Part shown: one piece after another, positions 12,131-13,103 of the stretch | Numbering within the stretch: position 1 is the stretch's first letter | Layout: each line of letters opens with the position of its first letter | Virus record (IMG/VR): IMGVR_UViG_2693429582_000026 | Length of the DNA: 15,498 nt | Reading direction: 5' to 3' (one strand) | Source of the DNA: a virus | Taxonomy: Duplodnaviria > Heunggongvirae > Uroviricota > Caudoviricetes | Notes under the pieces: generated by a model | What the model was told of the DNA's origin: nothing | Databases searched by the model: none | The model's input: the letters and a program-made list of their open reading frames with translations, nothing else | Program-made: the position numbers and the translations under genes

Positions 12131-12188
12131 CTTGTGTTGGTCGCCAGAAAATGAAATTAGGCAGCAAACCACTTATTTGAGGTGATAT

Positions 12189-12554
12189 ATGGAAGAACAA
12201 GCAAACAAGATTCTCGTAGAACTACTGCAAAAAGCCAGCAATGGAATAGACGCGGCTGTTTCATTTAGCCAGGCACAGATTCCTGATGTCATCCATCAGC
12301 TTTTGATGTGGCACGCCGTATCATCAGCTGGAACTCAGGCTATCTGTGTATTGGTGATTATAGCGTGTGTTTATCTGATGATTTTTGCATGGAATAAAGG
12401 AGATGATGCAGATATTGTTCTTTTATCACTACTTGTCACATCAGGAATAGCGATTACTTCTATTGTTGTTTTCTTCAATTATTTCGACTGGCTGAAAATT
12501 TGGCTTGCTCCAAAACTTTACCTTATCGAATATGCAGCATCATTGGTTAAGTAA
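12189..12554 (+). CDS. Hypothetical membrane protein (121 aa, 2-3 predicted TM segments) in the ral/sieB region after N
   Basis: ATG 12189 with GAGGTG RBS; AT-rich. Hydrophobic segments AICVLVIIACVYLMIFAW and IVLLSLLVTSGIAITSIVVFFNYF. Confidence 0.55.
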   Translation: MEEQANKILVELLQKASNGIDAAVSFSQAQIPDVIHQLLMWHAVSSAGTQAICVLVIIACVYLMIFAWNKGDDADIVLLSLLVTSGIAITSIVVFFNYFDWLKIWLAPKLYLIEYAASLVK

Positions 12555-12632
12555 TTTCAGGCCGCATAGTCGGCCTTTATTTTTGGCATAAACAAGAGAA
12601 TAAACACTGCACTGAATTATTTGAGGTGAGAT

Positions 12633-13103
12633 ATGACAAAATCATGGAGCGTACCTTTTCCTGAATCAGAAACTGAACATGATGGAATGCCTGTTTTCTG
12701 GAGATTCCAGGCGACAGTTGAAGAAGATGGAATCAAAATATTCGCACTTCAATATATAGCTTTTCATCAGACAGAGCATTATGCATGGTTGGTTCCTGCG
12801 CATTGGATTGTTAATTTTAAACCAGCACCAAATCAGTGGTTACAGGAATGGAAACAAAGGAGAAATAGATATGCAATTAAGAAAGTAGCAAAAAATGCAG
12901 AAAGATCTTTTGCATTCCCAACGAAGAAACTTGCCATTGAAAGTTTATTGCGCCGGAAGAAATACCATTTAATGAGAATCAAACAAGATTTGGCTGTTGT
13001 ATCAACTCTTGTTGATGGTATGAAGAATATTGATACATCAACACCAGATATTGAATATAACTTTGGACACAACCAAGAAACAGAAAATTGGGTATTTTAT
13101 TAG
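12633..13103 (+). CDS. Hypothetical protein (156 aa), AT-rich accessory gene
   Basis: ATG 12633 with the same leader TTATTTGAGGTGA(G/T)ATATG as the 12189 gene. No family recognised. Confidence 0.55.
   Translation: MTKSWSVPFPESETEHDGMPVFWRFQATVEEDGIKIFALQYIAFHQTEHYAWLVPAHWIVNFKPAPNQWLQEWKQRRNRYAIKKVAKNAERSFAFPTKKLAIESLLRRKKYHLMRIKQDLAVVSTLVDGMKNIDTSTPDIEYNFGHNQETENWVFY

Follow-up and report, generated by a model that had tools for sequence, protein, structure and literature searches.

The DNA behind the antiterminator gene N of this lambdoid prophage very probably consists of two independent single-gene cassettes, stacked in the "Ral" accessory region, a hypervariable N-distal part of the pL operon. 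The near-identical leader in front of both genes, here called gene A and gene B, is, as far as comparative sequence evidence goes, the linker in an array of cassettes that exchange there by homologous recombination. A linker necessarily repeats when two cassettes are stacked, which accounts for its duplication; and because the repeated leader is the standard linker joining such cassettes, the A–B arrangement is an ordinary one. The two genes have the marks of exchangeable cassettes: a position in the pL operon, independent presence and absence, breakpoints at conserved flanks, and an annotated boundary sequence. Cassette shuffling with boundary sequences in the lambdoid early-left operon is itself a known phenomenon.

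Organization of the locus

The window, meaning the whole stretch of DNA analysed (15,498 nucleotides), carries the following features around the two genes.

11506–11534, + strand: pL promoter, TTGACA-17-GATACT (consensus scan, 10/12 match), with CI operator repeats on its flanks
11551–11617, + strand: nutL, the N-utilisation site (66/67 identity to the nutL annotated in 933W record AF125520)
11747–12130, + strand: antiterminator N, 127 aa (Pfam PF25694 N_peptide, 1.6e-15; phrog_271)
12131–12191, + strand: N-distal spacer and leader copy 1, the 5' linker (comparison with other phages)
12189–12554, + strand: gene A, a 121-aa inner-membrane protein with two predicted transmembrane (TM) segments; cassette 1; phrog_3054
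12555–12614, + strand: cassette 3' trailer, with a hairpin at 12559–12576, then TTTATTTTT, GGCATAAACAAGAGAATAAACACT and GCACTG
12615–12635, + strand: AAT and leader copy 2, with the Shine-Dalgarno sequence GAGGTGA and the gene B ATG
12633–13103, + strand: gene B, a 156-aa soluble protein; cassette 2; phrog_1636; equivalent to 933W L0079
13107–13118, + strand: GAATAAGCACTG, an imperfect direct repeat of GAATAAACACTG at 12598–12609 (read from the sequence and alignment)
13113–13236, + strand: boundary sequence 4 (bsq4), an inverted repeat and a tL2A-like terminator (13206–13227 plus T-run)
13247–13558, + strand: P22 gp17 homologue, 103 aa (Pfam PF17420 GP17, 4.7e-55; phrog_1510), the next pL-operon gene

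N, gene A, gene B and the gp17 homologue thus all lie on the + strand downstream of pL and nutL, and N has the length and position of its counterparts in 933W and H-19B. Operator-like repeats D11 and D13 flank pL, which is the sole promoter-like site on the + strand between 11300 and 13700 in a consensus scan, a method that weak promoters may escape. A terminator scan placed terminator-like hairpins after gene A (12559–12576) and after gene B (13206–13227). The bsq4 region folds far better than its shuffles (z = -4.66), and no Rfam family was found in 11300–13700. The GAATAAGCACTG and GAATAAACACTG copies bracket the gene B cassette.

The sequence-only reading had placed two ORFs of 121 and 156 aa in an AT-rich interval after N, in the slot that holds ral and sieB in lambda. 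Coordinates and lengths proved exact, and GC content falls to 0.35–0.395 over 12201–13200, against about 0.46–0.50 in the flanks. The slot is also correctly named: ral occupies exactly this position in other prophages, and SPN9CC carries sieB between N and gene A.

Gene A and gene B

The gene A product has hydrophobic segments at approximately residues 47–69 and 75–98 (Kyte-Doolittle 19-residue mean up to 2.5), and TMHMM predicts two TM segments for the SPN9CC protein that is identical to it at 120 of 121 residues. Its earlier description as a membrane protein is thus well founded. At the DNA level gene A is 99.1% identical to SPN9CC_0015, and it is listed as UDP0047 by Silas et al. (Suppl. 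File 3). Within the family the N- and C-terminal segments are invariant and the TM/loop region between them varies greatly, with insertions of 0–40 aa; the position close to N is kept as far as Pectobacterium prophages. Sf6 gene 34 (phrog_3054) belongs to the same family and shares conserved termini, trailer and operon with gene A, whereas its central part is divergent. Its 140-aa product differs from that of gene A in the central TM/loop segment; the gene stands after ral instead of N, and is followed directly by bsq4 instead of gene B.

The gene B product has no hydrophobic segment (Kyte-Doolittle maximum 0.56), in agreement with its reading as a soluble protein. The gene is 99% identical in DNA to L0079 of 933W (phrog_1636, Shiga-toxin phages), where it directly follows N behind the same leader; unlike in the window, no cassette stands between them. 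In H-19B the gene B ORF is present but unannotated. About 11% of complete E. coli genomes (593 of 5426) carry gene B, including many Shiga-toxin phages. A broader, unnamed family of 130–165-aa proteins comprises 87 representatives at E ≤ 1e-3, and 62 distant relatives compared with Pfam gave no consistent family. An AP2- or Arm-like DNA-binding fold, considered on the basis of a beta-sheet-plus-helix pattern, found no support and was dropped. A literature search found no papers on L0079. Both ORFs are real genes, since their full-length homologues, conserved in length, extend into other genera (Pectobacterium, Brenneria, Cronobacter, Citrobacter) at 55–65% identity.

Neither protein had been recognised by the sequence-only reading, and family searches bear this out. 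Searches of Pfam, PHROGs, NCBIfam and PADLOC returned only "unknown function" PHROGs for A and B. There was no Pfam match at E ≤ 1, nothing below E = 0.3 in profile searches against PDB sequences, and no informative fold match for the structure models, which are of low confidence (pLDDT 62 and 68). PADLOC-DB 2.0 gave no significant defence-component match: the best gene B match was Cas1_II (E = 0.018 over 45 residues) and gene A gave weak "2TM effector" matches (E = 0.056–0.079), all below significance. The two proteins are also not a divergent Ral or SieB, a comparison that the sequence-only reading had proposed. Neither matched Ral (PF11058) at E ≤ 1 or any Pfam or PHROG SieB family at E ≤ 1, and hhalign comparison of the A and B family profiles with SPN9CC SieB gave probabilities of 0.1% and 0.4%.

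Repeated leader and shared trailer

Leader copy 1, TTATTTGAGGTGATATATG, lies at 12173–12191 and copy 2, TTATTTGAGGTGAGATATG, at 12617–12635. The near-identity pointed out earlier is real: the copies agree at 18 of 19 positions with a spacing of 444 bp. With up to 3 mismatches they are the only two matches in the whole window (chance expectation 0.01), and none of 200 dinucleotide shuffles contained two. The extended Shine-Dalgarno sequence GAGGTGAT lies 2 nt 5' of the gene A ATG.

The leader is a general feature of the region. A search of other prophages, which the sequence-only reading had suggested, found it widely: the 18-nt leader stands before 13 or more unrelated ORFs (122 IMG/VR instances); examples are the ORF upstream of ral, DUF7167 and the orf184 described by Silas et al. 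Scans show that it starts orf60, orf184 and gene A, and ral sits behind a leader-initiated 28-aa ORF. The spacer plus leader copy 1 is found unchanged in 933W, H-19B and Dewey, there as the lead-in to gene B. In other prophages this slot is taken by Ral, Nmad5, DUF7167 or a 107-aa ORF with identical 5' and 3' junctions, and the same spacer and leader stand ahead of each (ral together with orf28). Of roughly 36 gene B copies sampled, most come after the N spacer or a close variant, and about 6 after a cassette trailer.

The trailer is equally general. It comprises a hairpin, a T-run and GGCATAAACAA...GCACTG. In IMG/VR it stands behind no fewer than 12 unrelated ORFs and leads into at least four different continuations. 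It was found in 214 phage records, including lambda, where it occupies 34040–34087 and adjoins ral. Its last 6 nt, GCACTG, are the first 6 nt of annotated bsq4, and "boundary sequence 4" of HK542 begins at the same GCACTG where both cassettes end. Positions 13113–13236 of the window align collinearly with tL2A and with the block annotated in Sf6 as "bsq4; boundary sequence". The trailer-AAT-leader junction found before gene B recurs behind Ral, Nmad5, DUF7167 and 107-aa cassettes.

From the paired leaders the sequence-only reading had drawn common regulation or a shared origin. Common regulation is true only trivially: A and B are carried on one pL transcript, antiterminated by N, and have the same strong Shine-Dalgarno sequence; there is no specificity to A and B in a leader that precedes so many unrelated ORFs. 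Shared origin falls away, since this is a generic linker and A and B are not paralogues. The direct repeat at 444-bp spacing might suggest a local tandem duplication of a gene with its leader, followed by divergence into paralogues, but this has almost no likelihood: the A and B proteins are not homologous (hhalign probability 0.3%), they differ in length, hydropathy and family, and each gene has near-identical orthologues elsewhere without the other. Duplicated paralogy was rejected on the hhalign result, the 444-bp indel comparison and the phages that carry gene A only.

Convergence is another way to explain the likeness. The leaders would then have been selected purely as strong ribosome-binding sites, with no recombination role and no history. 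The core GAGGTGA(T) is a 7–8-nt perfect complement of the 16S anti-Shine-Dalgarno sequence at a good distance from the ATG, and the leaders are unstructured, folding no better than shuffles (z about 0), so that no RNA element was seen in them. Identity nevertheless reaches beyond the Shine-Dalgarno sequence (TTATTT, ATAT), and in other genomes it extends 40–60 nt further upstream, into the N spacer or the trailer. Nor does convergence predict what is seen for many unrelated cassettes, whose presence/absence breakpoints coincide precisely with leader and trailer sequences. As a full account it is improbable, and the conservation of the leader could still owe something to selection for a strong ribosome-binding site.

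Independent inheritance of the two genes

Comparison of genomes separates A from B cleanly. In 933W, H-19B and Dewey the order is N, leader and gene B; exactly 444 bp are absent (gene A, its trailer and one leader) and the flanks are identical. Conversely, SPN9CC, Sf6, HK633 and the DH5alpha prophage have gene A but no gene B. In SPN9CC, HK633 and Sf6 the gene A trailer runs directly into TGTATTCATTCC..., the sequence that follows gene B in the window. Among the 5426 complete E. coli genomes, this gene A allele (counted at ≥80% coverage) was found in 43, against the 593 with gene B, and the adjacent A–B segment in 4. Of 27 IMG/VR copies of gene A, 2 continue through the leader into gene B, 17 continue into bsq4, and the rest are followed by other genes. 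The conserved co-occurrence or adjacency of obligate partners is thus not seen in either set (4/5426 genomes; 2/27 IMG/VR gene A copies).

These data weigh on the reading of A and B as one imported two-gene module, which does not survive them: the genes occur independently in hundreds of phages and prophages and are joined and separated by clean indels. In its functional form this reading makes A and B a dedicated two-component superinfection-exclusion or abortive-infection module, with a membrane effector or anchor and a cytoplasmic sensor or partner imported as a unit. A membrane protein does stand beside a soluble one, in an AT-rich segment and in a slot that elsewhere holds sieB and ral, and the "2TM effector" matches of gene A, weak as they are, point the same way, as does the A–B adjacency in a few unrelated prophage backgrounds. 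Such a module is nonetheless very unlikely. Separate inheritance prevails in the great majority of genomes, the indels fall at the linkers, and each gene has its own ribosome-binding site with a terminator-like hairpin between them. A consensus scan gave no promoter-like site for prophage expression, and no defence-family match was significant. Gene B homologues in Pectobacterium adjoin xis/int and not a gene A homologue. Finally, Silas et al. included a protein near-identical to that of gene A in their library of 200 genes and report no phenotype for it. Because A and B are neighbours in three or more backgrounds, which differ in the N gene and the genes downstream and include another gene A allele, some weak functional preference for pairing may exist.

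Proposed assembly and expression

Each cassette consists of a conserved 5' linker, (CACT)TATTTGAGGTGAkATATG, that also serves as a strong ribosome-binding site; an unrelated ORF; and, at the 3' end, a conserved trailer (hairpin, T-run, GGCATAAACAA..GAATAAACACTGCACTG) from which the sequence normally continues into bsq4 and tL2A. With linkers of 20–80 bp common to all cassettes, recombination could exchange them in register with gene boundaries. Comparative patterns suggest that homologous recombination (Red, Erf/RecT or RecA) between co-resident lambdoid phages and prophages swaps, adds and deletes cassettes in this way. Gene A, near-identical to the copy of Salmonella P22-like phages, occupies the exchangeable position between N and gene B, the latter being the common 933W/H-19B gene L0079. 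A simple crossover of two single-cassette parents does not account for the trailer-AAT-leader junction before gene B. Some other event, such as illegitimate recombination at CACT(G) or GAATAARCACTG microhomology, must have created it one or more times before it spread.

Transcription of both genes is predicted to start at pL alone and to pass the hairpin terminators once N has loaded at nutL, and each gene would be translated independently from its own linker copy. Expression by this route would make A and B early lytic or induction genes, not genes expressed from the prophage.

Relation to known systems

Boundary sequences of lambdoid phages are the closest parallel. The module-exchange model for them is said to go back to Susskind and Botstein and to Clark and colleagues in 2001. 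Like the linkers in the window, they are short conserved non-coding blocks at early-left gene boundaries, common to phages that differ between them. In contrast, the 5' leader and hairpin trailer carry no bsq annotation in the Sf6 and HK542 GenBank records, and the linker of the window is present twice, with two cassettes stacked. Boundary sequences are attributed to Clark et al. (2001) in a later article (PMC3233612), and identification of bsq4 here is based on this secondary citation and on GenBank feature annotations (Sf6 AF547987, HK542 EF120458).

The same region has been singled out by Silas et al. (bioRxiv 10.1101/2023.04.06.535777), whose "Ral" accessory region ranked second among those inspected. 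Their library includes orf47, orf60, orf87 (ral) and orf184. The first of these is AEW47744.1 of SPN9CC, the near-identical relative of gene A, and no phenotype was reported for it in the 200-gene screen (Silas et al.). Two more, orf184 (107 aa, MEALVVER...) and orf60 (83 aa, MEFHESAI...), are cassettes with the same leader as A and B. Gene B is not among the library members. Of the genes with a described action, orf184 sets off the gop-beta-cII abortive system, and type I restriction-modification is blocked by ral (Silas et al.).

The ral/orf28 cassette of lambda occupies the same slot, with the same 5' leader (before the 28-aa ORF preceding ral) and the same 3' trailer; Ral itself, however, is a 66-aa soluble anti-restriction protein (PF11058) unrelated to A and B. 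Lambda ral is expressed from pL under N. SieB/Esc of lambda and P22 share the genomic neighbourhood, as the SPN9CC gene order shows. SPN9CC sieB, however, lies on the strand opposite N and pL, whereas A and B lie on the pL strand with no promoter-like site; the consensus scan found no promoter-like site for repressed-prophage expression on the + strand between pL and 13700. Morons, reportedly defined by Juhala and colleagues in 2000 as a promoter, gene and terminator inserted between phage genes, are likewise AT-rich extra genes with a terminator-like hairpin between conserved genes. For A and B the consensus scan detected no promoter of their own, insertion is in register at conserved linkers, and expression is probably from pL.

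Possible functions

Judged from their neighbourhood, A and B may be non-essential accessory proteins of the class of Ral, gp17 and orf184, early modulators of host defence or physiology that act separately and unpaired. This assignment is tentative, at somewhat less than an even chance.

Other proposals concern gene A alone. T4 Imm shows that an exclusion protein can be the product of an early lytic gene, and gene A could be an early Imm-like membrane protein. During lytic growth it would block entry of superinfecting DNA or have some other action at the inner membrane, with specificity set by the hypervariable TM hairpin/loop. A small two-TM protein in an early operon, with a conserved close-to-N position reaching to Pectobacterium prophages, is consistent with this, and invariant ends around a variable TM/loop are the pattern expected under an arms race, although relaxed constraint on the TM helices could explain the variable centre just as well. 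The likeness to Imm is limited to size, two TM segments and probable early expression. There was no Pfam match of gene A to Imm (PF14373), and no sequence or profile similarity to SieB or to any Pfam or PADLOC family. Imm served as a control in the published screen (Silas et al., bioRxiv 10.1101/2023.04.06.535777), which was able to detect Imm/Cor protection and reported no orf47 phenotype, with a read-out that its authors called variable. An Imm-like role is accordingly unlikely. Gene A is one of a large family of proteins from enterobacterial phages, with invariant cytoplasmic ends on either side of a hypervariable TM hairpin or periplasmic loop. Also a long shot is that this design marks an undescribed early membrane factor, for injection-blocking exclusion or inhibition of membrane-based host defence, that would diversify its specificity by intragenic mosaicism and might cooperate with B in the rare prophages where the two are stacked.

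Implications

The result is mainly corrective: a repeated ribosome-binding site or leader before adjoining unknown lambdoid early genes is not evidence of a co-imported functional module. Such a leader is the signature of linker-mediated cassette shuffling, which builds these accessory regions. Gene B (L0079) is widespread in E. coli and Shiga-toxin phages, yet lies outside the published accessory-gene screen. The leader TATTTGAGGTGAKATATG and trailer GCCTTTATTTTTGGCATAAACAA offer handy probes for the full cassette repertoire of this hotspot, which already includes the anti-restriction gene ral and the abortive-infection trigger orf184.

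Organization of the early left region

With pL pointing right, the window corresponds to a lambdoid prophage's immunity and early region.

Main features of the region
9504-10217: CI repressor gene
11506-11534: pL, TTGACA-17-GATACT
11551-11617: nutL, 66/67 identity to the annotated 933W nutL
11747-12130: N (Pfam N_peptide, 1.6e-15)
12189-12554: gene A, 121 aa, two hydrophobic segments
12633-13103: gene B, 156 aa, no hydrophobic segment
13247-13558: P22 gp17 homologue (Pfam GP17, 4.7e-55)

The sequence-only reading correctly described two ORFs after N in an AT-rich interval. A (121 aa) has two hydrophobic segments (approximately residues 47-69 and 75-98) and B (156 aa) has none; GC drops to 0.35-0.40 across the interval. 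The near-duplicate leaders preceding them are also real: 12173-12191 and 12617-12635 are identical at 18/19 positions and are the sole matches in the window, even with 3 mismatches allowed; two matches were obtained in 0/200 shuffles. Since same-size, full-length homologues of both occur in several enterobacterial genera (55-65% identity), A and B are genuine genes.

A prophage of E. coli O103 ML775 (NZ_CP193495.1) shows 100% identity to the 1151-bp query 12100-13250. This prophage looks degraded, with a frameshift in replication gene O, a truncated erf/Rad52 gene and an internal stop in a theta-subunit homologue. Its early-left arm adjoins torI beside dsdC. Elsewhere in the window, Rfam matches adjoining antirepressor genes are AgvB (anti-GcvB sRNA; 448-509, +), STnc100 (510-703, -), C4 antisense RNA (4973-5056, -), isrK (5082-5158, -) and, overlapping isrK, the c4-a1b1 target family (5119-5171, -). 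Three tRNA genes lie within 1476-1724 (-).

Separate occurrence of genes A and B

Genes A and B do not form a unit. In 933W, H-19B and Dewey, N is followed by an identical spacer and leader and then immediately by gene B; relative to these phages, the window carries a clean 444-bp extra segment consisting of gene A, its 3' trailer (a hairpin/T-run block) and one leader. Conversely, the P22-like Salmonella phage SPN9CC has gene A without gene B (DNA identity 99.1%), and HK633, N7, Sf6 (gene 34) and the DH5alpha prophage likewise have A and lack B. Among 5426 complete E. coli genomes, this gene A allele was found in 43 and gene B in 593 (both at >=80% coverage), and the whole A-B segment in 4. 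In an IMG/VR sample of 27 gene A copies, the leader into gene B follows in 2, and boundary sequence 4 (bsq4) comes next in 17. In Pectobacterium, gene A homologues hold their position a few genes 3' of N, while one gene B homologue adjoins xis/int instead. The two proteins show no homology to each other by hhalign (probability 0.3%). The proposal that both were imported as one two-gene exclusion module is not supported by these separate patterns of presence and absence.

The gene B ORF lies unannotated in GenBank between N and gene 17 of H-19B (AF034975.3, 1590-2060). The HK633 record (JQ086377.1, 1688-2363) lists two different ORFs in place of gene A: HK633_045 overlaps the gene A start out of frame, and HK633_044 corresponds to its C-terminal 58 aa. 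Even so, the DNA there is 99.1% identical to that of gene A in the window; the mismatch probably reflects faulty annotation or a frameshift.

Linkers, trailer and boundary sequence

In other E. coli prophages, the slot between N and gene B holds ral with a small upstream ORF, an Nmad5-family gene, a DUF7167 gene or a 107-aa ORF. Each of these cassettes starts at the leader or a close variant and closes with the shared trailer, after which come AAT, the leader and gene B. Scans of IMG/VR found 122 instances of the leader TATTTGAGGTGAKATATG before at least 13 unrelated ORFs, mostly directly 3' of the N spacer or of a cassette trailer, and 121 instances of the trailer core GCCTTTATTTTTGGCATAAACAA 3' of at least 12 unrelated ORFs, including Ral, Nmad5, three gene A alleles, gene B, and ORFs of 83, 107, 62 and 60 aa. 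The trailer has at least four different continuations in IMG/VR, and a given upstream ORF can be paired with different ones; the trailer occurs in 214 phage records, including lambda, beside ral (34040-34087). In IMG/VR loci, the trailer is also tied directly to more unrelated ORFs by another, shorter form of the linker (...GGCATAAACAACAGAGGCTAACATG or ...CAGAGGTGAATATG), so it is the 5' flank for several alternative downstream cassettes apart from gene B.

The records of Sf6 and HK542 annotate the conserved block after the trailer as bsq4, with the terminator tL2A next. The annotated bsq4 begins at GCACTG, the end of the gene A trailer (12609-12614), and the sequence 3' of gene B also joins bsq4 at GCACTG (13113). 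Copies of an imperfect direct repeat lie on either side of gene B and its leader: GAATAAACACTG (12598-12609) and GAATAAGCACTG (13107-13118). The bsq4 block with its tL2A-like terminator (13104-13250, +) folds at -49.2 kcal/mol (z = -4.66 vs shuffles), with a perfect 12-bp hairpin GTGTATTCATTC/GAGTGAATACAC 5' of the terminator; given this strong folding, its conservation may reflect a function in RNA structure or termination in addition to recombination.

The pattern in the window is a textbook case of lambdoid mosaicism via short conserved boundary sequences (Susskind & Botstein 1978; Clark et al. 2001, cited in PMC3233612). The repeated leader acts as the linker in an array of cassettes and is present twice because two of them are stacked. 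Cassettes would be exchanged by homologous recombination inside the linkers. Such recombination is plausible because the shared flanks are 20-80 bp long, a size of homology used by phage Red- or RecT-type systems. The trailer-AAT-leader junction before gene B is absent from both single-cassette parents, so a simple crossover is insufficient; the junction must have been created at least once in some other way and afterwards been used as a flank in subsequent replacements. This type of architecture is already known, for the most part down to its details: the boundary sequence is annotated, the accessory region is published and identical genes occur in hundreds of deposited phages.

Expression

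No promoter-like site was found between pL and genes A and B. Hairpins that resemble terminators and carry T-runs lie 3' of gene A (12559-12576), gene B (13206-13227) and gp17 (13582-13601), and the leader, predicted by folding to be unstructured, has a 7-8-nt perfect complement to the anti-Shine-Dalgarno sequence. From this combination we infer early, N-dependent transcription, with each cassette translated independently. Both genes would then be silent in a repressed prophage, which makes a role like that of SieB or Rex less likely; early-acting exclusion in the manner of T4 Imm would be compatible with such expression. On the minus strand, the sole promoter-like site near the genes (13122-13094, -; TACACA-17-TAAAAT, 9/12) points into the gene B antisense strand, which contains small ORFs (57-79 aa); the site is probably due to chance.

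The 332-aa ORF at 10288-11286 (+), between the CI repressor gene and pL, occupies the position of lambda rexAB. PHROGs assigns it to phrog_6191 ('unknown function', E = 1e-137), and PADLOC and NCBIfam give no match. Because a gene in this slot is typically prophage-expressed, the ORF is a better exclusion or defence candidate than genes A and B.

Protein families and function

Neither protein is related to SieB, and neither has a significant match in Pfam, NCBIfam or PADLOC or, in profile searches, to PDB sequences. PHROGs places gene A in phrog_3054 and gene B in phrog_1636, both of 'unknown function'. AlphaFold2 models were of low confidence (pLDDT 67.8 and 62.1), and fold searches with them gave no informative match. 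The gene B protein is one of a larger unnamed family (130-165 aa; 87 representatives at E<=1e-3) that has no consistent Pfam signal. In the gene A family, N-terminal residues 1-45 and C-terminal residues 98-121 are nearly invariant across genera. The intervening transmembrane (TM) hairpin/loop is hypervariable and carries insertions of 0-40 aa; at the DNA level, Sf6 gene 34 and the window agree at the two ends only. The family is mosaic within the gene. The neighbourhood of ral, gp17 and orf184 (a 107-aa ORF) tentatively suggests that A and B are most likely separate, dispensable early proteins modulating host defences or physiology.

Accessory regions of enterobacteriophages have been identified, with the 'Ral' region ranked second in the inspected list (Silas et al., bioRxiv 10.1101/2023.04.06.535777). 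The 200-gene library of that study includes UDP0047 (AEW47744.1 of SPN9CC; 2 TM by TMHMM), which is identical to the gene A protein at 120/121 residues and is unmentioned among the phenotype genes. Also in the library are orf184 (107 aa, MEALVVER...), a trigger of the gop-beta-cII abortive system, and orf60 (83 aa); both share the leader in IMG/VR scans. Gene B is missing from the library. Two leads follow: gene B (933W L0079), widespread yet outside the published library, and the unusual design of the gene A family, in which a variable TM core lies between conserved ends.
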